DNA from: Arenicellales bacterium
Lineage (GTDB): Bacteria > Pseudomonadota > Gammaproteobacteria > Arenicellales > JAJDZL01
Direction of reading: 5' to 3'
Assembly: GCA_965220395.1 (NCBI GenBank)
Contig: CBDCPT010000001.1
Location: 1,652,933-1,716,932 of the forward strand
DNA length: 64,000 bases
This document shows positions 1 to 17,188 of the stretch, piece after piece (the first letter of the stretch is position 1; each line of letters begins with the position of its first letter). The notes under the pieces are model-generated. The model was given only the letters and a program-made list of their open reading frames with translations, was not told where the DNA came from and did not search any database. The position numbers and the translations under genes were made by a program.

Positions 1-1946
1 GGCGGTTTTCACCAAATGCCAGTGCCTCACTCCACGCCATATTACCCGTTTCCAGTAGCCGCTCATCAAACCGGACGTGCGGTTTTCCCGCATCCGGCTT
101 TCAGACGAAATCATGCCTTCGCCCACGGAAAGCTCGTAGTCGTACTTGCAAGACGAGTCAAGCCGTACTGCTCGTACAGCCGAGCATCGGGAAAAAGCAC
201 GTATTTCCCGCTTCTCACCTTGTGTTTACGACATAGCCACTGACGAAGCCGTCGCATCGTGTGCATATCCACTGCGGTATAGGCTGGCAAAACTTGTCCC
301 AGGTAAAAATAATTCCCCCATCCAGTTAACATCTGGTTGAGGCGCTTTACCATTTGTTCAGATTCCACAGTCCCATAACAACTCGCGGTTTGCTCACTGA
401 TTTTGCGGCATATACCTTGAACGCTCGACTTGCTCGGACGAGTGCCGATGTAAGCGCCTTTTCCGTTGTGTCGATAATTCGTTCCAATACGGTAGCCCAA
501 AAATTCCAAAGCCTCATCCGGACAACGCAAGCATCGGGTCTTTTGCATATTCACTGGCAATTTCAGATGCTCCATGATTCGGGTAAACGCTGACAGCATT
601 TGTGCCGCCGGCGCTTTGCCCAAGATACAGATGTCATCTGCATAATTGACAATCTGTGCCTGAAACTTACGGGCAAAGCCCAATTGTTTCCAACCCAGAA
701 TGAAGCGCCTCATGTAGATATTGCTTATCAGCGGCGAAATTGGACAACCCTGCGGGATGCCCTTACGCTGCTTCTTCGCCCGGTTCGTACGGCGTCTGCC
801 ACCCTTGCCGTCATCCTGTTCTACCGGCATTTCCAGCCACGACTTGATGAGTCCGAGCATTGCGCCATCGCTGATGCGACGCGCCAAACTCTTCATCAGT
901 TCAGCATGGGGAATTTCACCAAAATAGTTGGATAAATCTGCATCTGCCACTTCATGATGCCCGCTGTTCAGCAGCGAATGAACACGAATAACCGCATCAT
1001 TCGCACTCCTGCCCGCCCGATAGGCATATTGCTCCTCGCCCAGATCGGCTTCAAAGATCGGCGATAAAACTAACATCGCCGAGGTTTGCACCACCCGATC
1101 GCGCAAGCAGGGAATGCCCAATGGACGAAACTTGCCTTTCTGTTTCTTCGGAATTAATACCTCTCGCACCGCTCGCGGTGTATAGGTCTTGTCTTTGAGT
1201 TCCCGCGCCAGTTCCCCAAGCCACCTCTCCACGCCATATGCCTCGATGTCGCTGATTGTCTCACCGTCCACGCCAGCTGCACCGCCATTGCGGCGCACCT
1301 GCCGATACGCTTCTGTAAGAAAATCTGCTCGATACAACTTGTCATACAATGCATGAAACCTCAACTCAGGTTCTTCCTTCGCTTTGGCATGTAGTATGCG
1401 CTGTAGCCTCTGAACCTTATCTGACCCTGTTAGATTTATATCAGTTGTCATGTCCTTTCTTCCTTTACATACTGCTTTCGACTCAAGGCTCCTTTCCTAC
1501 ACAGGCATTACCCTGTATCTTCGGTACTACGAGCCTATCCGCCACCCTGACAACCCAGTCTCGTCCTCACGGATTACCGGTTTGGTGTGTGCTGCATCAT
1601 TGTCAGGGCTTCCCGTGTTGCCACTTTACTCATCTTCCATGCGTGCCAGCGCCATTACCCCGACGGAAATACATCGGTGCTCGTATCGCTCACTTCCCCA
1701 TGTATCGTCGGTCTTCTTCCAAATCGCGACAGAATCGACTTCCGCATTAAATGTTTCGAGGCCTGTTCGACGTTCACTCGCGTTCCAGCCCGCATGTTCG
1801 CTGAATTGCCTTACGCAATCCTTCTAGCCAAAGTGCTTCAAACCATTTCGTTACCTCCTTGATCCGCTTTAGCCGCTACCAACCGGAGCGACAGTTGTTG
1901 GGTGGGATTTGCACCCACCAGAGTAAAGCGCCTTTCCACGGCGCAC
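1..1946 (-). mobile_element. Group II intron (ribozyme domains plus intron-encoded protein). The 5' end is at 1946. The 3' boundary is unresolved and lies within the first ~40 nt or beyond the window edge.
   Basis: The minus strand reads GTGCGCC starting at 1946, the typical intron 5' consensus. A domain V-like hairpin on the minus strand at ~66-100 reads AAGCCGGATGCGG-GAAA-ACCGCACGTCCGGTTT and includes the AGC triad. An RT/maturase ORF lies between them. Confidence 0.8.
111..1451 (-). CDS. Group II intron reverse transcriptase/maturase
   Basis: 446-aa ORF. RT motifs include GVDGETI, RPLGIPCLRDRVVQ, GIPQGCPISPLISNIYM and YADD. A C-terminal maturase-like region (GYRIG...LTGWGNYF) follows. Confidence 0.92.
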   Translation of the reverse strand: MTTDINLTGSDKVQRLQRILHAKAKEEPELRFHALYDKLYRADFLTEAYRQVRRNGGAAGVDGETISDIEAYGVERWLGELARELKDKTYTPRAVREVLIPKKQKGKFRPLGIPCLRDRVVQTSAMLVLSPIFEADLGEEQYAYRAGRSANDAVIRVHSLLNSGHHEVADADLSNYFGEIPHAELMKSLARRISDGAMLGLIKSWLEMPVEQDDGKGGRRRTNRAKKQRKGIPQGCPISPLISNIYMRRFILGWKQLGFARKFQAQIVNYADDICILGKAPAAQMLSAFTRIMEHLKLPVNMQKTRCLRCPDEALEFLGYRIGTNYRHNGKGAYIGTRPSKSSVQGICRKISEQTASCYGTVESEQMVKRLNQMLTGWGNYFYLGQVLPAYTAVDMHTMRRLRQWLCRKHKVRSGKYVLFPDARLYEQYGLTRLASTTTSFPWAKA

Positions 1947-2206
1947 GAGATTCGAATATTTACCGTTTGACGAAATTTCTATAAATGATGCTGGATAGTT
2001 CATTGATTACACACCACTTGTACGTTAGAGTCAATTATGATTCAACTCGTGACCATAGAAATCATGGTCATTATTCCGATTGACAATCGAACAGTTTCAT
2101 CAGCTCAATCACGATCAACAAAGACAATGTAATGGAACTCGTCGGAAAATCGAAAATGAAACCTTTAGTGTGCTGCAAAAGACGGTCATCGCATATCTTG
2201 GAATCT

Positions 2207-2599
2207 CTAGAATTGCAGAATAACATCCTGTTGATTCATGAGGTCGGACAGAGTATGAGAGGATACAACCGTCACGCAGTTGCTGTCATCCTCTCGCGGC
2301 ACGTCCATCAAGTCTTCGGCAGTCATGCCGCGCTGTTTCAAAGACTCTTCCTCGACGAACAGATTCGTAATATCAAAGTCTCGTAATGCTCTGAAGGTTC
2401 TGGTGAAGTGCTTCATTCCAAGTACTGAGGGATCTTGGTTTCGTATCAACTGATAAACACCGTCATCCAAGAAAACAACACTAATATCCTGCTCAAAGGC
2501 AGAGCCTGCCAACATTGCGTCTAGTGCCTCCAATCCATAGATGGTGCCATAAGGCGCACGACGATTGATGAACATGAAACGTTTTTTGGCTTCAACCAT
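2207..2599 (-). CDS. tusC: Sulfur-relay protein TusC/DsrF family
   Basis: 130 aa in the DsrE/F fold (FMFINRRAPYGT...LDALLAGSAF). It sits directly downstream of a TusD/DsrE-like gene. Confidence 0.7.
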   Translation of the reverse strand: MVEAKKRFMFINRRAPYGTIYGLEALDAMLAGSAFEQDISVVFLDDGVYQLIRNQDPSVLGMKHFTRTFRALRDFDITNLFVEEESLKQRGMTAEDLMDVPREDDSNCVTVVSSHTLSDLMNQQDVILQF

Positions 2600-2618
2600 T
2601 GTCTATACCTAAATTCAG

Positions 2619-3011
2619 TCAGTCACCGAATATTACTGTTCGATCGGCGATAATGCTTCCTTCAATGAAATAGCCAATGCCAGCAACCTGAAATTGGCTG
2701 TCAATATTGGCGATATCCTTTCCGTATTGCTCGGCGGATTCAGAACTCAATATGCCTCTTCTAAGCGATGCCGCGATGCAGACTGCCAGATCGATGTCGT
2801 GGTCACGAGATAATTTGGTCCATTGATTGACGATATCCCGGTCATCACTAGGAGGCGCGCTCAGTGCTGTGCCGTTGTATACACCGTCGTGATAAAAGAA
2901 CACACGAACGATTTCATGTCCGATGCGCAATGCAGCATTCACAAACTGATAGGCAGAATCGGAGGCCTGATGGGTATAGGGACCTTCACAAACTAGAATA
3001 TTGAATTTCAT
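2619..3011 (-). CDS. tusD: Sulfur-relay protein TusD/DsrE family. Start reassigned to the internal Met (MKFNILV).
   Basis: MKFNILVCEGPY...FFYHDGV...LAVCIAASLRRGI is the typical DsrE/TusD pattern with the conserved Cys. The upstream 27 codons of the tracked ORF look like read-through. Confidence 0.7.
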   Translation of the reverse strand: MKFNILVCEGPYTHQASDSAYQFVNAALRIGHEIVRVFFYHDGVYNGTALSAPPSDDRDIVNQWTKLSRDHDIDLAVCIAASLRRGILSSESAEQYGKDIANIDSQFQVAGIGYFIEGSIIADRTVIFGD

Positions 3012-3207
3012 GAGCTGATGAATTGAGGCATAGTGCACCACAGCATAGTGTTTAGTTATCCAATCTATAGAAGTGTGTCCATTGGATTGCATCTATAAAG
3101 GCGGACACTACTAGTCTAAATTTTTTTCGTCATGCATTTTCACTGCCGCCTTGGCAATGCGAAATGATGCCTAGGGGAACAGCCAAAGACACAGAAAATA
3201 GTTGAGT

Positions 3208-3432
3208 CTATCGTAATTTGACGAATTCTCTTGTCACCATACCCGCATCCGAAGAAATTTTATGAAGTAAACCAGGTGTTATATCTTGGCCGAAATGCAC
3301 CGGTACGGTAACAATCCGGCCATCGGAATGTCGAAATTGCTTATGCGACCTTTTTTGCCTCACTTCCTCAAAACCCAGTTTGTTCAGTATTCGAATGACT
3401 TCTCTAGGTTTTAATACAGGAATATTTGACAT
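3208..3432 (-). CDS. hicA: HicA-family mRNA interferase toxin
   Basis: 74 aa. The pattern LKPREVIRILNKLGFEEVRQKRSHKQFRH...VTVPVH matches the YcfA/HicA family. Confidence 0.8.
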   Translation of the reverse strand: MSNIPVLKPREVIRILNKLGFEEVRQKRSHKQFRHSDGRIVTVPVHFGQDITPGLLHKISSDAGMVTREFVKLR

Positions 3433-3581
3433 GTGTTACACCTTAATTTGCTCATAAAATGTTCCTATCAAGTAAACGTATGAAACTCCTATTTCCCCTA
3501 TAGCATGCGCGTATAGTGGAAATACTTCTACCAATCAAGGTAGAAGCAGATGATCAATAAAGAAGATGTAAAGATTGAGAA

Positions 3582-3836
3582 TTAAGCGGCCACTTCCAGA
3601 TGATCGGTTTCAACAACAACCGTTTTTGTGCCTACATACTGTGTCTGCATCTCAGGCTCACCATCTTCGAGTAGCATTGTGATGACTTCTTTCATATGCC
3701 GATCTAGTTCGTCGATTGTTTTTCCTTGACTGTATGCACCTGGAAAACTAGGCACACTTCCAATATACAGACCTGTCTCCAAGCATCGCTCGATGATGAT
3801 TGTGTAAGTTTGTGTTGCGTTTTTTTCCCTTGACAT
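3582..3836 (-). CDS. hicB: HicB-family antitoxin (N-terminal fold only, no obvious DNA-binding domain)
   Basis: 84 aa. YTIIIERCLETGLYIGSVPSFPGAYSQGKTIDELDRHMKEVI matches the UPF0150/HicB pattern. It lies upstream of hicA, separated by a 150-bp spacer containing a hairpin. Confidence 0.7.
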   Translation of the reverse strand: MSREKNATQTYTIIIERCLETGLYIGSVPSFPGAYSQGKTIDELDRHMKEVITMLLEDGEPEMQTQYVGTKTVVVETDHLEVAA

Positions 3837-4286
3837 TTCTTTTCCTACAGATTCAGCTTAAATTCGGGGATTCCTTTGAATTTTGCGTAGACCCCTAGTC
3901 ATATCTAACATACATTTTAACGCAACCGGTGACCAGTATGGATGGGAAACCAGAGAATTCGCCGTAGTTTGGTGGAATAGAAAATCGTGTTGCCAATCAC
4001 TGGGCTCTGGCAACGGAAGTTACAACGTTACATCAGTTTTCGGATATCGAACGAACAATTGATTGCTAGAAATGTTGTTATTGAAAATCCGCTCTTGCCG
4101 AAAGAATTTCTTCCGAAAATCGTTGTATTGTATTTTTCATCTCTACTGCATTTAATGCATCAAGCAATACAACACCCCCGTAAATATTTGGGAATTACAT
4201 ACTTGTGTACATTTTTATTCGCATTACCATCAATAATAATGTACAATACTACCATAAATCAATAACACATTTCTAGATTGAAACTT

Positions 4287-5234
4287 ATGACTAGCAAAGG
4301 AAAGGGACCAGGTAAATACAACCGAAAAGGCATTAGCCTAATCGAAGCCGTTCAAAAGTTCGGAGACGAAGAAACAGCAGAGAAATGGTTTGTAGAACGT
4401 CGCTGGTCAAACGGAATCATCTGTCCAAAGTGCAATAGTGATAAGATCAAACCAAGAAGAACTGCTAGAAAAACTCCTGTGTATCACTGTAATTCCTGTA
4501 AATTCGATTTTACAGTAAAGACTGGAACCATAATGCACGACTCCAAGCTGCCCTTGAGTAAATGGGCTTTGGCATTCTATCTGTATTCAACTAACTTGAA
4601 AGGTGTGTCCAGCATGAAACTGCATCGTGATCTAGGTATCACTCAAAAGTCTGCATGGCACTTGGCACATCGAATCAGAGAGACTTGGAACGATGAAACA
4701 CAGAAACTGTCAGGCACAGTAGAAGTGGATGAAACCTATATGGGTGGTTTGGAAAGGAACAAGCACAACGATAAGAAACTCAAATCAGGTAGGGGTGCAG
4801 TAGGCAAGACTGCCGTTATTGGAGTCAAGGAAAGAGAATCAAAGAAAGTCAAAGCGGAAGTTATAGAAAATACGAAACGACCAACACTTCATGGATTCAT
4901 TGATAAGAACATTGAAGCTGGTTCAGCAGTCTATACGGATGATTTCAAGAGTTACGAAAAACTTGATGGGTATGAACACAGTACCGTAAAACACAGCGTA
5001 GGACAATACGTAGACGAACAAATCCATATCAATGGCATGGAGTCGTTCTGGTCTATGCTGAAACGGGCACATAAGGGAACTTACCATAAAATGTCAAAGA
5101 AACACCTAACTAGGTATTTACAGGAATTTGCTGGCAGGCACAATATCCGTGAACAGGATACCATCAACCAGATGCAACATATCGTTGCTAGTATGATTGG
5201 GAAGAGATTGAGATATTCAGAACTAGTGAAGTGA
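4287..5234 (+). CDS. IS1595-family (ISXO2-like) transposase, apparently intact
   Basis: N-terminal zinc ribbon (CPKCNS...YHCNSCKFDF), then LKGVSSMKLHRDLGITQKSAWHLAHRIR and VEVDETYMGG, with a DDE-type C-terminal half. ATG 4287 aligns with the start of the second copy. Confidence 0.9.
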   Translation: MTSKGKGPGKYNRKGISLIEAVQKFGDEETAEKWFVERRWSNGIICPKCNSDKIKPRRTARKTPVYHCNSCKFDFTVKTGTIMHDSKLPLSKWALAFYLYSTNLKGVSSMKLHRDLGITQKSAWHLAHRIRETWNDETQKLSGTVEVDETYMGGLERNKHNDKKLKSGRGAVGKTAVIGVKERESKKVKAEVIENTKRPTLHGFIDKNIEAGSAVYTDDFKSYEKLDGYEHSTVKHSVGQYVDEQIHINGMESFWSMLKRAHKGTYHKMSKKHLTRYLQEFAGRHNIREQDTINQMQHIVASMIGKRLRYSELVK

Positions 5235-5636
5235 ATGGAGGTCTACATAAAGCTAAATGGGCATTCTGATGCTGGTAAGAAACCAGCTTGGCAGGCTGCA
5301 TCGATAATCAGTGCAAACTCAACAATCATTCATACCATAAACACGGCTATACCGATTCTAAGAATATAGTCAATGGTTTTATAGAGGTTACTTTTCCTTT
5401 TCATAATCTATCACCTTTCCGTCACATGCCAGCACGCCAGAATAAATAATCTAGCACGACATTAAAGTAAGGAAAAAGGATAAAGAAAATGATGAAAAAA
5501 AGTATCAACGAGATTATTTTCACCCATTTAGGGTATCCTGGATTGTCCAAATTCAGAACTCGTGACATAGTCAGGATTGATATGCGACAATTGGCCTTTC
5601 GTAGACCATTCTCAAATCAGTTCCGGGGTAAATTGT

Positions 5637-5936
5637 TCACTGTAGAGTCGCACACTCGCATAGATCATGCAACGCTTTATTGAAGCGTGGCTGAGCCATG
5701 CAGTGAAAGCGTACCACCAGTCGTTTGCGTTGTCTACACGGCAGCAGGCCAATCGCCATGCGCTGCCCATAATCATCGGATTCAAGATACGACAGCATCA
5801 CGCCACTGGCGTTGTGAATCGCCACGCGGCCGTTTTCGCATACCTTGGCGCAGCGCTCGTTGATGAATTCGGCATGTTCCGGGAGGAAGTTCAGGCACGA
5901 TTGAAGCATGGCATAGGTTCGGCTTTGGAGAGACAA
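5637..5936 (-). CDS. Hypothetical protein or gene fragment in a locally GC-rich patch; function unknown
   Basis: 99-aa ORF with protein-like composition (FLPEHAEFINERCAKV...). An overlapping opposite-strand ORF looks less protein-like. No family was recognised. Confidence 0.3.
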   Translation of the reverse strand: MSLQSRTYAMLQSCLNFLPEHAEFINERCAKVCENGRVAIHNASGVMLSYLESDDYGQRMAIGLLPCRQRKRLVVRFHCMAQPRFNKALHDLCECATLQ

Positions 5937-6093
5937 TCGCCGTTATTCGATTTATGCCACATTTTTCCAAAAAAAGCAGGCCGAACCGCATGTTTATTGA
6001 TATTCTCTTCACCTATGTCACGTGTTCTGAAGTTAGGTTTGGAAGGTTCCTCTTTCTCTTTTATTTTCTCCAACAATCTTGCTAGCTCGGCAT

Positions 6094-6205
6094 GGGTGCC
6101 GGGCTATTGCAAACATCTTGAAAAAAGAAATCCTTGCCTATTCACCTTGACGGTTGTTATATTTGGCAAGTAACCCGACCTGCGGGAATTTCAAAATGTT
6201 TGCAG
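6094..6205 (+). repeat. Conserved ~110-bp internal module of the IS1595 cargo elements (copy 1), bounded by 17-bp inverted arms
   Basis: Near-identical to the reverse complement of 14727-14839. The arms TTGCAAACATCTTGAAA (6107-6123) and TTTCAAAATGTTTGCAG (6189-6205) are inverted. The module contains TTGCCT, a 17-nt spacer, then TTATAT (6134-6162). Confidence 0.85.
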
Positions 6206-6314
6206 TAAAGATTCGATACCAGTTGTATTTCACTTGTAAACAAATATTCACTAAATGATCTACAATGAATTTTCATAGCAAAAAGTAAAGACGATTTCAC
6301 AAGAAGGACTAGAT

Positions 6315-6638
6315 ATGAAGAAGACTGGTGCAGTTGGCATTAAAGGCACAATCACATGGCATGTGTTTCAAAGTGAACATGGTAATTGGATTGGAATTTG
6401 TGACACTCTAGGGTTAACAATGGAGGGTCCTACTATTGACGAATTGAATCTCAATATTCAAGATGCAGTGCAGTCAATTCTTAATCGACTTTTGAAAAAA
6501 GGAGAACTGGAGAAATTCTTTAGTGATCGTGGATGGGGTTCACAGCAATACGCAATGGAGAACGATATAGGAGCAAGTGTCCCAATTGATCTTTTAGTGC
6601 ATTCAAATTATGCCTATTCCACGTCAGCAGTTCATTAA
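6315..6638 (+). CDS. HicB-like / DUF1902-like antitoxin candidate (IS cargo)
   Basis: 107 aa. WIGICDTLGLTMEGPTIDELNLNIQDAVQSIL resembles the HicB/UPF0150 N-terminal fold. It overlaps the next ORF by 29 nt. Confidence 0.5.
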   Translation: MKKTGAVGIKGTITWHVFQSEHGNWIGICDTLGLTMEGPTIDELNLNIQDAVQSILNRLLKKGELEKFFSDRGWGSQQYAMENDIGASVPIDLLVHSNYAYSTSAVH

Positions 6639-6834
6639 GTCTTTAAGAGAACTAGGCTACAAATTCGACCATCAAGCAAAGCGGACTTTTGTCTATAGGA
6701 AAATTGGTGGCACTCATCATGTGGCAGTTCCCCAACAGGAGTTACTGGATGAACGTAATATTCATTCTATTTTGAGACAGTGCGGATGCACTGATTCCAA
6801 AATCAGAGAGATTATGGAATCACTCCATGAATAA
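6610..6834 (+). CDS. HicA-like small protein (IS cargo); the canonical G-S-H catalytic motif is not evident
   Basis: 74 aa. FIKSLRELGYKFDH...HHVAVPQQELLDERNIHSILRQCG parallels the HicA layout. Confidence 0.45.
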   Translation: MPIPRQQFIKSLRELGYKFDHQAKRTFVYRKIGGTHHVAVPQQELLDERNIHSILRQCGCTDSKIREIMESLHE

Positions 6835-6877
6835 CTCTACACGCCAAGCAACGTGATAATCAAACAGAGAGGTTGAA

Positions 6878-7024
6878 ATGTCAAAGAAACCCAAAAGAGG
6901 CAGACCCATAACAAAACCCCTCCCAGAACGAATCAACGCCTCTCCAGAAACAATAGCTGAAGTGGTGTTGCGAGCCAAGCCAAAGAAGTCATGGGACTAC
7001 ATGAAAAAACAGGAATCACAATAG
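6878..7024 (+). CDS. Small basic protein (48 aa) at the distal end of IS element 1
   Basis: ATG preceded by AGAGAGG. Sequence MSKKPKRGRPITKPLPERINASPETIAEVVLRAKPKK.... It is the positional and weak sequence counterpart of 14505-14657. Confidence 0.45.
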   Translation: MSKKPKRGRPITKPLPERINASPETIAEVVLRAKPKKSWDYMKKQESQ

Positions 7025-7111
7025 GGGATTTAGTACACAAGTATGTAATTCCAAAAATTTAGATTACCTCCGAGCCAAATCCTCATACTGATAAAATTGA
7101 GTGCATGAAAT

Positions 7112-12888: not shown

Positions 12889-13308
12889 CCCTATTCTCCA
12901 GACGAATAATTTTCATATTGACAGCTTGATTCGTGCAAACTGATGTTTTTACTATAGTCCAGTAGTCTTATTATTACACGAAACCCTTTCGCTATCTGCA
13001 ATTTGCACGCAAACCGGCCACTGTACGAGTCCACTGAAGATGATCAATCCTGTTTCCGAATTCTCCCCTGCCGCAGGGAATACAACCTACTTTCATTGCC
13101 TGAACAAATTAGATAGTGTATACAATCAATATTGGTGGCTGGGTTAAAGCGACAGACGAACCTTGTCCACTGCTTTCACAAGAAATTTTGACTCTTTGCT
13201 CGAACTATCTGTTCTTGTAGACATTTCTTCACACTTGTACTGTAAGTGCAAAGCCGGTTGTAATTGGAACAGACACCTGAATTACGCACACTAGAATTTC
13301 GTGGCTGC

Positions 13309-14145
13309 ATGGCAAACTTAAAATTGAAAATCAACGATCCCGTACGCTTCTATAGTCAACGTGGTCTGGAAAAAGGATTTATCGCATCAGTCTATGGTAC
13401 TAAAGCGACAGTAGTTGCCGAGGACGGCGCCGAATTCGACGTGCCGGTTCTCATACTCAAACCAAGGGAAGGTGTCAAGCCCAAGCGGGTGTATACACAC
13501 AATCAGATGCAACGAACGAAATTCAGTATCGGCGATTCCGTTTTCTTTTGTTCATCGAATGGAAAAATTAACAATGGCACAATTACTCGCATGAATCCCA
13601 AACGCGCACGACTGGAATGTGCGGGAGAAACTTGGGATGTGCCGTACGAAATGCTTGAAAAAGAAACACCTGACCAGCTGGGCATTGAAAATATGCAACA
13701 GCTGGATACAGTAGCCCAGCAAGCAGACGAACTGCTACAGAAGCATCAGCTCACCGACTGGCGATTCACTTATGATGATGCAACGAAGAGAGGTGGAGTC
13801 TGTTTGTACACAGACAAGACAATTAGCATTTCACAGCAATTCTGTCTTAGAGCGGATGAAGTCGAAATCACTGATACGCTATTGCATGAAATTGCACATG
13901 CACTAGTCGGTCCCAATCACGGGCACGACGCCGTCTGGAAGGCCAAAGCGCTGGAGATTGGATGTAGTGGCAACCGAACGCACAATATCCACTTTACACC
14001 ACCAAAATATATTGTTTCCTGTTTCCAGTGCGACTGGCATATCGGACGTGAGAAACGCTCAAGAGGACTTGTCTGCAAACATTGTGGACAGAATGTCACA
14101 TTTGAGCACTATACAAAGGACTTGTGGAATTCGTATCGACTGTAG
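13309..14145 (+). CDS. SprT-like zinc metalloprotease-domain protein with two N-terminal ~50-aa repeats and a C-terminal zinc ribbon
   Basis: LLHEIAHALVGPNHGHDAVW (HExxH) and CFQCDW...CKHCG. ATG 13309 is preferred over the upstream TTG at 13264. Confidence 0.65.
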   Translation: MANLKLKINDPVRFYSQRGLEKGFIASVYGTKATVVAEDGAEFDVPVLILKPREGVKPKRVYTHNQMQRTKFSIGDSVFFCSSNGKINNGTITRMNPKRARLECAGETWDVPYEMLEKETPDQLGIENMQQLDTVAQQADELLQKHQLTDWRFTYDDATKRGGVCLYTDKTISISQQFCLRADEVEITDTLLHEIAHALVGPNHGHDAVWKAKALEIGCSGNRTHNIHFTPPKYIVSCFQCDWHIGREKRSRGLVCKHCGQNVTFEHYTKDLWNSYRL

Positions 14146-14325: not shown

Positions 14326-14419
14326 GGGCTTGTAGCGGAACGGTATACGCAGGACACTCGGAATGTCCCACTTAGTTGCACAAACAACTAGGTTGTGGGT
14401 TCGAATCCCACCAAGCCTA
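14326..14419 (+). tRNA. Type-II (long variable arm) tRNA with anticodon CGG (Pro codon CCG). Leu-like D arm, A73, no encoded CCA.
   Basis: Manual fold. Acceptor GGGCTTG/CAAGCCT with G1-U72. D arm GCG-GAACGGTATA-CGC. Anticodon arm GGACA-CTCGGAA-TGTCC. 26-nt variable region with an 8-bp stem. T arm GTGGG-TTCGAAT-CCCAC. Discriminator A. Confidence 0.75.
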
Positions 14420-14504
14420 CACCCATTCCGTCATACCGACAAGAAAGACGGACAGTCCAACATTAAACGGTTTCTTGTGTTACAGAATTTTAACACAAGG
14501 ATAT

Positions 14505-14657: not shown

Positions 14658-14726
14658 ATTGCTAATCTCCAATTTAGTTGTTGTCGTTGGATTATACAAA
14701 AATAGACAAATATAGTAGAATTCTTA

Positions 14727-14839
14727 TTGCAAACATTTTGAAATCCCCGTAGGTCGGGTTACTTGCCGAATATAACAGCCGTCAAGGTGAATAGGCAAGG
14801 ATTTCTTTTTTTCAAGATATTTGCAACTGCCCGGCACCC
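14727..14839 (-). repeat. Conserved ~110-bp internal module of the IS1595 cargo elements (copy 2)
   Basis: The reverse complement is near-identical to 6094-6205. The inverted arms are TTGCAAACATTTTGAAA (14727-14743) and TTTCAAGATATTTGCAA (14810-14826). Confidence 0.85.
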
Positions 14840-16033: not shown

Positions 16034-17188
16034 TCATTTCACCAGTTCCGAATACTTCAATCGCTTTCCGACCATTCCAGATGCAACACGTTGTAGCTGA
16101 TTGGCTGTATCTTGTTCGCGGATGTTATTCCGTCCAGCAAATTCCTGGACATACCGCCCTAAATGCTTCTTGGACATTTTATGGTATGTGCCTTTGTGCG
16201 CTCGTTTGAGCATTGCCCAGAAACTCTCGATTCCGTTGATATGCGCCTGTTCTTTCACATACTCGCCAACTGAGTGTTTGACCGAATCGTGATCGAAGTC
16301 TGTCAGCTTCTCATAACTCTTGAAGTCGTCTGTATAGACAGTTGAGCCAGGATCAATGTTTTCATCAATGAAGCCGTGCAGTGTCGGACGCTTTGTATTT
16401 TCGATCACTTTTGCCTTGATCTGCTTGGTCTCTCGCTCCTTTGCGCCGATAACAGTAGTCTTTCCAACTCCACCGCGTCCGGCGTTCAGTTTCTTGTCAG
16501 CGTGCTTGTTCTTCTCCAATCCGCCTATATAGTGTCTGCCAGAAAACGTTTAACACATTGATAATAATGATTAATCATGTCATTCTATAAAGTGAAGATT
16601 TTGCTGGTTTGTGGTATTTGGCAACGAAATTCGCCTTTGAACCCGTTAATCCGCCAAAACCGAAATTTCTTCGTTTGAAAATATCGGATGATTGTTCTTT
16701 ATTATCAATGTGATGTAGAGTTTTCTGACGAACACTATATAGGTTTCGTCTACTTCGATTGTGCCATCAAATTTAATGGATTGAGATTCAAAGGTTTTTC
16801 GTAGACGATGAGCCAAGTGCCAAGCTGATTTTTGAGTGATACCCAAATCTCGATGAAGTTTCATACTGGACACACCCTTGAGATTTGTAGTCAACAGGTA
16901 AATTGCAATCGCCCAAACCTGATAGTTCAGATTTGACCCTTCCATTACCGTACCTGTTTTTAGCGAAAACATCTTCCTGTCTTCGCAATTCCTACAGCGA
17001 TGCGTCATCGTTTTGTGTTTGATATTGGACTGCACATTGTCAGAATTGCAATATGGACAATGCGCGCCATCAGGCCATCGGTGTTCTTCGAACCATTGTC
17101 GAGCAACCTCATTGCTCGAAAACTTGTTCATCAGTTCGATTAAAGTGATACCCTTTCGGTGAGATTTGCCTGGGGCTTTTTGAGTCAT
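16034..17188 (-). pseudogene. IS1595-family transposase split by a ~200-bp insertion
   Basis: The N-terminal part (17188 down to ~16743) ends ...IEVDETYI. The C-terminal part resumes GGLEKNKHADKK... (16524 down to 16034). Both halves align with the intact copy at 4287-5234. Confidence 0.9.
16525..16742. mobile_element. MITE-like non-autonomous insertion (about 202 bp plus a duplicated CTATATAG)
   Basis: The ends TGTCTGCCAGAAAAC (16533-16547) and GTTTTCTGACGAACA (16720-16734) are inverted, matching 12/15. CTATATAG occurs at both junctions (16525-16532 and 16735-16742). There is no ORF inside. Confidence 0.75.

Follow-up and report, generated by a model that had tools for sequence, protein, structure and literature searches.

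The closest described counterparts of the locus analyzed here are the transporter insertion sequences (tISs), the name given to those insertion sequences (ISs) in the IS1595 family which bear passenger genes (Siguier, Gagnevin and Chandler, 2009, as cited in PMC3129680). In a 64,000-nt stretch of an Arenicellales bacterium contig, referred to in full as the window, positions 4190-7052 make up a 2.86-kb segment, element 1, that is very probably a tIS, that is, an IS1595-family insertion sequence with passenger DNA inside its own ends; a second IS1595-type element in the window is termed element 2. Element 1 and its relatives share with the tISs a DDE_Tnp_IS1595 transposase with a zinc ribbon, short terminal inverted repeats (IRs), 8-bp target duplications, and passengers positioned downstream of the transposase gene and inside the IRs. 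They differ in having a structured RNA cassette and tRNA genes among their passengers, and in the spread of the clade over metagenome-assembled genomes (MAGs) of Chloroflexota, Binatia, Arenicellales, Poribacteria, and Gemmatimonadota. We know of no description in tISs of a second small open reading frame (ORF) conserved at the right end, as is found here.

Transposase and ends of element 1

The transposase of element 1 matches PF12762 (DDE_Tnp_IS1595) with 148 bits (cut-off 27) and NF033547 with 196 bits (cut-off 75). Its N-terminal zinc ribbon matches PF12760 with 31.2 bits (cut-off 25.4), and the four cysteines of the ribbon are invariant among homologues. The alignment covers the homologues from end to end; among 32 of them 80 columns are invariant, and the element 1 protein retains every one. 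The initial annotation of this DNA, made from the letters alone, had described an intact transposase of 318 aa; the protein is intact, and its length is revised to 315 aa on the basis of the likely start at ATG 4287. This 315-aa product is already on record in a Logan contig identical to the element 1 locus. Look-up of the 318-aa, TTG-start product gave no match (the start codon being uncertain), nor did look-ups of the HicB-like ORF described below and of a neighbouring protease, whose start codons are likewise uncertain. Plasmid-borne matches to the transposase are annotated merely as "IS1595 family transposase."

As first annotated, the 20-bp sequence GGAATTACATACTTGTGTAC at 4191-4210 recurs as its exact inverse at 7033-7052 (20/20). 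The family register of ends, GGG...CCC, places the left end of element 1 at 4190 rather than 4191. The 12-nt core of the repeats, GGAATTAYATAC, was found five times in the window with at most one mismatch, against 0.37 occurrences expected, and four of the five are the ends of elements 1 and 2. No rival IR is present near the transposase stop or anywhere else in 5235-7032 when up to 7 mismatches in 20 positions are allowed, so the IRs bound the element with no alternative end. Between the transposase stop and the right IR lie 1.8 kb of DNA. The original description of a cargo-carrying IS1595-family element with an intact transposase is borne out.

Relatives that move as units

Element 1 was compared with 80 loci encoding transposase relatives (52-67% identity), which were fetched from species-representative genomes, all of them MAGs, of the lineages Chloroflexota/Dehalococcoidia, Binatia, Arenicellales, Poribacteria, Gemmatimonadota, Myxococcota, and alphaproteobacteria. 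At 49 of the 80 loci a GGGAATTATATAC-type sequence precedes the transposase gene and has an inverted copy 1.3-5.9 kb away (median 2965 bp); all but two of these elements (47/49) exceed 1.5 kb. The interiors of the IRs vary between lineages yet match within each element, and several short contigs start and finish exactly at the IRs. Perfect 8-bp direct repeats flank 37 of the 46 elements for which both flanks are present, leaving nine without a matching duplication. A target preference of the form AAA(A/T)ATTT had been proposed from the two window elements and does not hold as a fixed sequence for the relatives, whose duplications are AT-rich (83% A+T versus 42% in the surrounding DNA) and are invariably A or T at positions 2 and 7; several are of the AAAATTT type.

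Movement of a passenger-carrying member as a single unit is directly evidenced by L008 and L009 (OZ242329.1), two 3192-bp elements that are 100% identical and occupy unrelated sites of one chromosome, each with a different duplication. Together with the 1.8 kb found inside the IRs of element 1 past its transposase gene, this pair supports the assignment to the tISs. The source contig of the window, about 1.89 Mb in length, holds further IS1595-type transposase fragments.

The MAGs that contain the transposase clade represent at least eight phyla or classes (L004-L081 in general), a distribution that hints at wide horizontal spread across these groups, and the isolate and contig names of the MAGs suggest marine sponge microbiomes.

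A conserved scaffold with exchangeable cargo

When the ORFs downstream of the transposase in all elements were clustered, the largest cluster was a small basic protein of 45-107 aa. A lysine- and arginine-rich stretch and RGRP are followed in it by P-E-x-I-D-A-T-P-E-E-I-A-x-V-V-L and then by KPKK-x-W-x-Y. A profile detected the protein in 41 of 51 elements, where it is with few exceptions encoded on the same strand as the transposase and its stop codon is mostly 29-65 bp from the right end; the 48-aa ORF of element 1 is a typical member and the 50-aa ORF of element 2 a divergent one. No Pfam or NCBIfam family matched the small ORF, and a single-sequence search returned 98 representative clusters. 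Nothing but the transposase gene and the small ORF is present in the two shortest elements, L036 (1284 bp) and L039 (1358 bp). The 48-aa ORF had been listed among the contents of element 1, and its occurrence in 41 of 51 elements makes it a conserved scaffold gene instead. The family-wide scaffold is composed of the left IR, the transposase gene, the small basic ORF, and the right IR, with the passengers positioned between the two genes. For annotation this is of practical use, as the 48-aa ORF and the right IR mark the true end of the element.

The proposal that elements 1 and 2 belong to a single family with a fixed scaffold and exchangeable cargo is borne out by the short elements L036 and L039, by L082 (discussed below), and by L008 and L012. 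The last two share transposase genes that are 93% identical and final 200-bp segments that are 96.5% identical, and their cargo is unlike. Recombination within the conserved scaffold segments would be expected to leave this pattern and is probably the route of cargo exchange. The RGRP motif of the small protein resembles an AT hook, and the element inserts into AT-rich DNA; as a guess, the protein may take part in target choice or end binding.

A passenger RNA resembling sRNA-Xcc1

The small RNA sRNA-Xcc1 (RF02221) of Xanthomonas is borne on integrons, transposons, and plasmids and has been described as trans-acting. The gene that follows it is symE in Xanthomonas integrons (10.1101/2025.06.18.660453) and an ORF6N gene in APSE phages (10.1101/2020.03.17.996009). 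A structured RNA resembling sRNA-Xcc1 forms the core of a module in element 1 that had been annotated as a conserved 110-bp part of the fixed scaffold. Its conservation is confirmed: 6094-6215 is 91-92% identical to the copy in element 2 (14718-14839), whereas the two transposase genes are just 72% identical. The scaffold role is not upheld, as the module is a passenger RNA found in about 12 of 82 transposase-containing loci (the two window elements and the 80 fetched loci), in either orientation. In both window copies the RNA is read on the strand opposite to that of the transposase.

The two copies score 36.5 and 32.7 bits against RF02221, below its gathering score of 53, and the alignment is full-length, spanning model positions 1-87; helices P1, P2, and P3 covary in 60 distinct relatives. 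A blastn search with the module gave no matches in the 80 loci, and nhmmer and a covariance model were needed. With nhmmer, weak relatives of the RNA were recovered from the cargo of other elements, and their alignment resolves into three helices with compensatory changes, in which the G-U pairs fix the strand of the RNA. In 1 Mb of loci a covariance model built from eight sequences detected 12 copies, which mostly lie in or adjoin IS1595-type elements; the class is represented in L032, L033, L044, L049, L064, L069, L070, L071, L080, and L084. The exact module pattern was not found in viral and metagenome contigs. A pattern scan yielded 67 metagenome loci (L086-L152), of which about 18 also encode an IS1595-type transposase. 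In the 60 distinct RNAs, the share of paired cells is 98.3%, and both sides have changed in 9 of 18 pairs, values that no shuffled or slid control came near; the 60-sequence alignment was fitted to the model, which favors the structure somewhat. The common long-hairpin forms had no Rfam match at E ≤ 0.1.

The RNA contains the segments GUCGGGU...AAUACAAC...GAAUAGG...GCCCGGC and a variable hairpin with the loop GGAGUAGCUNCC. Its likeness to sRNA-Xcc1 lies in the closing stem, the hairpin with AAUAYAA / GAAUAG internal loops, and the second hairpin, and in being borne on a mobile element upstream of a gene. The downstream genes differ in that they mostly encode signal-peptide proteins here, and in contrast to the trans action described for sRNA-Xcc1 the arrangement here resembles that of a 5′ leader. 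An ORF begins 25-50 nt 3′ of the RNA and has a ribosome-binding site, and its N terminus is strongly hydrophobic, often with a lipoprotein-type cysteine (41/66, versus 61/405 for the other ORFs of the same loci; near-duplicates among the loci make the effective sample smaller). The genes encode secreted proteins, lipoproteins, and also GT25-like glycosyltransferases. Element 2 and L084 keep the RNA-led gene, with the signal peptides MKCLIILCFVGLVALL... and MSISKMILALSAIFAVSAYG..., respectively. The 3′ strand of P1 can alternatively pair with a downstream GCCGGG segment. Upstream of the RNA, 6183-6264 is probably a divergent promoter region; a promoter-like TTGCCT-18-TGnTATATT is positioned at 6134-6163 on the plus strand, though its match to the consensus is not above chance.

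We read the module as a passenger cassette in which a leader RNA precedes an exported-protein gene. More tentatively, and with rather more doubt than conviction, we propose that it represents an undescribed class of cis-acting structured RNA, distantly akin to sRNA-Xcc1, that is located 25-50 nt ahead of secreted-protein and lipoprotein genes and could pair in a switch-like manner through P1 or through GCCGGG; the cassette would travel, in the hosts sampled, on IS1595-type transporter elements along with an accessory protein, AT-hook-like in sequence, by which insertion may be directed to AT-rich DNA. Two other identities for the module were considered and rejected. The arms do not fit the core-site consensus of integron attC sites, and a miniature inverted-repeat transposable element (MITE) present in both elements would not account for the RNA-type covariation, the G-U pairs on one strand, and the fixed position before an ORF.

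In element 1 a nested IS begins 60 nt past the RNA, where the start of the gene would be expected, and the RNA-led gene appears to have been destroyed by this insertion; the minus-strand ORF tail at 5422-5548 may be what remains of it. The GC-rich ORF fragment of the initial annotation belongs to this nested IS, and 5549-6034, with its 22-nt inverted ends, is by its sequence an internally deleted remnant of another IS. The minus-strand ORF of the remnant is 91-99% identical to the N termini of a few proteins, and the longer protein P0125 carries HTH_23/28/29, domains typical of transposases. Other homologues continue into MSRVLNL, a sequence that resembles the translated repeat arm of 5549-6034. 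The Logan contig or assembly breaks inside the same interval. Searches of the fetched loci with 5235-6093 (tblastx, blastn) returned nothing beyond the identical L001.

The Hic-like pair

The next passenger is a pair of genes annotated as hicB-like and hicA-like. The hicA assignment is supported by fold: the AlphaFold2 (AF2) model of the 74-aa protein, with a mean predicted local distance difference test (pLDDT) of 91, shows an α-β-β-β-α arrangement, and in Foldseek it is matched best by 1whz and by the HicA chains 6g26_E/F, 4c26, and 5yrz_B (probability 0.99-1.00, TM 0.53-0.79). His21 is positioned in predicted strand 1, which we take to be the place of the catalytic HicA histidine, and is retained in the DNA-derived L082 homologue. 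The hicB assignment is weak, as the 107-aa protein has a sub-threshold Pfam match to DUF1902 (E=0.006) and a HicB-N-like β-β-α pattern; its model has a pLDDT of 58, a confidence so low that the fold search, which gave no structural match, is uninformative. Sequence searches of the PDB with the two proteins gave no matches. Features in common with HicAB are the fold of the 74-aa protein, the small overlapping two-gene operon, and the β-β-α pattern and weak DUF1902 match of the partner. The genes possibly encode a toxin-antitoxin pair, and it is plausible that such a pair would stabilize the element.

The pair is rare: apart from the identical sequence, 5.8 billion proteins included a single homologue. 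In L082 the cassette (6305-6830, 526 bp, exactly the two genes) is present at 90.5% identity behind a transposase gene that is just 78% identical. The upstream gene there is a different one, the small ORF is of the element 2 type, and a methyltransferase gene is also present; this constitutes a second, independent example of cassette exchange. In L083 the right-hand side is arranged as in element 1 (module, cassette, small ORF, right IR), except that a DUF1640-like gene takes the place of the pair.

Evidence against the assignment and alternative histories

Several observations weigh against the reading of element 1 as a tIS with a toxin-antitoxin passenger. At the right end TTCC is followed by A (TTCC|A), so the terminal C of the GGG...CCC register is absent, whereas 48 of 49 relatives end in CCC and the right end of L083, 92% identical to that of element 1, is TTCCC. 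The flanks AAATATTT (4182-4189) and AAAAATTT (7053-7060) agree at 7 of 8 positions, as had been annotated, and with the missing terminal base this single mismatch leaves no clean duplication to prove that the 2.86 kb inserted here as a single unit. Neither a second copy of element 1 nor an empty site was found, and the one further record of the transposase comes from the same locus. Among subgroups, that of ISNwi1 and its passenger-carrying variants is probably the closest, an assignment that depends on the fit of the ends GGGAATTAC/TAT (GGnnaTTAT type) to ggnnatTAT, the ISNwi1 consensus of the ISfinder tables. The cargo also departs from HicAB: the 74-aa protein scores 15.9 bits against PF07927 (HicA_toxin), for which the cut-off is 27; the 107-aa protein has no significant family match and no recognizable DNA-binding domain; and the hicB-like gene comes first, the reverse of the classical hicAB order. 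The two small changes at the right junction suggest that this copy may be old, impaired, or recombinant, and its current mobility is uncertain.

One history that would explain these changes is that element 1 arrived as a tIS and has been immobile since its right end lost the last base, in which case the flanks would be a decayed duplication. The TTCC|A junction, set against the CCC of L083 and of nearly all other relatives, is in keeping with such a loss, as are the 7/8 flanks, the lack of a second copy, and a cargo that holds a dead nested IS and an RNA deprived of its gene. However, the transposase ORF is intact with every invariant residue kept, the 20/20 identity of the two IRs argues against long decay, and the explanation presumes that the terminal base matters for mobility in this family. 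We give this history real weight while holding it to be doubtful on balance. Alternatively, element 1 could join two copies from different AT-rich sites, and the 7/8 agreement would then reflect target preference alone. Insertion into AT-rich 8-mers, several of the AAAATTT type, would yield partial matches without a shared origin, and 9 of 46 relatives likewise lack a matching duplication; but 7/8 is high even among AT-rich 8-mers, and the flanking genes show no sign of rearrangement, though no in-depth look at them was made, so we consider a junction of this kind improbable. That the right IR is a solo end from another insertion, the true element being an IS of about 1.1 kb that finishes soon after the transposase stop, can be set aside as highly improbable, as no support for it was found, 5235-7032 contains nothing resembling an IR even with 7 of 20 mismatches allowed, the right IR agrees with the left one at 20/20 and departs from the element 2 IR after position 13, and a small ORF beside the right IR is the standard right-end layout of 41/51 relatives. 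We retain the tIS with ends at 4190 and 7052 as the preferred reading. The features of element 1 are collected in Table 1.

Table 1. Coordinates of the features of element 1 and of tRNA cargo in related elements (window positions, except where a locus is named)
Feature	Position	Strand	Evidence or remark
Left flank AAATATTT, candidate target duplication	4182-4189		7/8 with right flank; relatives show perfect 8-bp AT-rich duplications
Left terminal IR GGGAATTACATACTTGTGTAC	4190-4210	+	same GGGAATTAT/CATAC beginning in 49 related elements
IS1595-family DDE transposase, 315 aa, intact	4287-5234	+	PF12762, zinc ribbon, NF033547, invariant columns
AT-rich spacer	5235-5548		minus-strand ORF tail 5422-5548 with transmembrane-like segment
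Nested remnant of a different IS	5549-6034	-	22-nt inverted ends 5549-5570 / 6013-6034
GC-rich truncated N-terminal transposase fragment	5637-5909	-	inside nested remnant
Structured RNA resembling sRNA-Xcc1, core of module	6094-6182	-	RF02221 36.5 bits; own model R1 87 bits; covariation
Conserved region upstream of RNA	6183-6264		shared with element 2 to 6215 and with L083 to 6264
HicB-N-like ORF, 107 aa (weak call)	6315-6638	+	DUF1902 E=0.006, below cut-off
HicA-fold ORF, 74 aa	6610-6834	+	AF2 pLDDT 91; Foldseek matches to HicA chains
Small basic ORF, 48 aa	6878-7024	+	RGRP (AT-hook-like), then PERInASPEtIAeVVL, KPKKsWdY; conserved scaffold gene
Right terminal IR	7033-7052	-	family-expected terminal C absent; relative L083 has TTCCC
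Right flank AAAAATTT	7053-7060		
tRNA cargo of related elements	L044 7343-7416, 9015-9113; L074 7055-7128; L026 7763-7837		Gly(GCC) twice, Ser(GCT), 99-nt tRNA-like sequence

Element 2, other cargo, and neighbouring genes

Element 2 has a perfect 8-bp duplication, AAATTTTG. Its transposase is 66% identical to that of element 1 at the protein level, and the reported near-identity of the first 13 nt of the IRs of the two elements was reproduced, with 12/13 positions in agreement before the repeats diverge. The transposase of element 1 might mobilize element 2, as was initially proposed. The element 2 transposase gene is split by a 210-bp MITE-like insertion at 16527-16736 (ends AGTGTTCGTCAGAAAAC / GTTTTCTGGCAGACACT, ATAT-type duplication), of which no other copy was found in the window or the fetched loci; once the insertion is removed, the ORF is intact (315 aa). 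Element 2 also contains a 95-nt tRNA-Pro(CGG) gene at 14326-14420 (+), whose variable arm is long, which is not usual in proline tRNAs. The ORF at 13264-14145, considered as a third transposase, is SprT-like instead.

Among the passengers of the relatives, DNA methyltransferases, often fused to HNH or nuclease-like domains, are present in 13 elements, and methyltransferase-HNH fusions are the commonest cargo. XRE-type regulators are found in several elements, and tRNA genes in element 2, L026, L044, and L074.

To the left of element 1 the window contains a group II intron at 111-1920 (-), recognized by Rfam group-II-D1D4-4 at 1778-1920 (77.6 bits), with a 446-aa ORF at 111-1451 (-). Two DsrE/DsrF-like genes follow at 2207-3092 (-), which suggests a sulfur-oxidizing host. 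A chromosomal HicB_lk_antitox gene (27.8 bits, at the cut-off) is positioned at 3582-3836 (-), about 350 bp to the left of element 1, and the interval between them, where only short broken ORFs occur, may hold a decayed hicA partner.

Discussion

By analogy with related systems, the transposase would bind the terminal ~20-30 nt of the element and move all DNA between the ends into AT-rich sites, generating an 8-bp duplication. Passengers sit between the transposase gene and the small gene and are probably swapped by recombination in the conserved scaffold, those of element 1 being the dead nested IS, the sRNA-Xcc1-like RNA, and the cassette of HicB-N-like and HicA-fold genes.

The element described here is real and correctly classified, and as a type it is ordinary; the side leads are of more interest than element 1 itself. 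We could find no description of three features, namely the conserved small ORF, the RNA-led cassette, and the breadth of the clade across phyla. The small ORF and the RNA provide concrete, testable leads.

Poorly annotated as they are, the tISs blur the boundary that separates insertion sequences from transposons. Carriage of cargo is the rule in this clade (47/49 elements), and the range of phyla, together with cargo as varied as methyltransferases, regulators, HicA-like proteins, tRNAs, and an RNA-led cassette, gives the family the look of a small, promiscuous gene shuttle.

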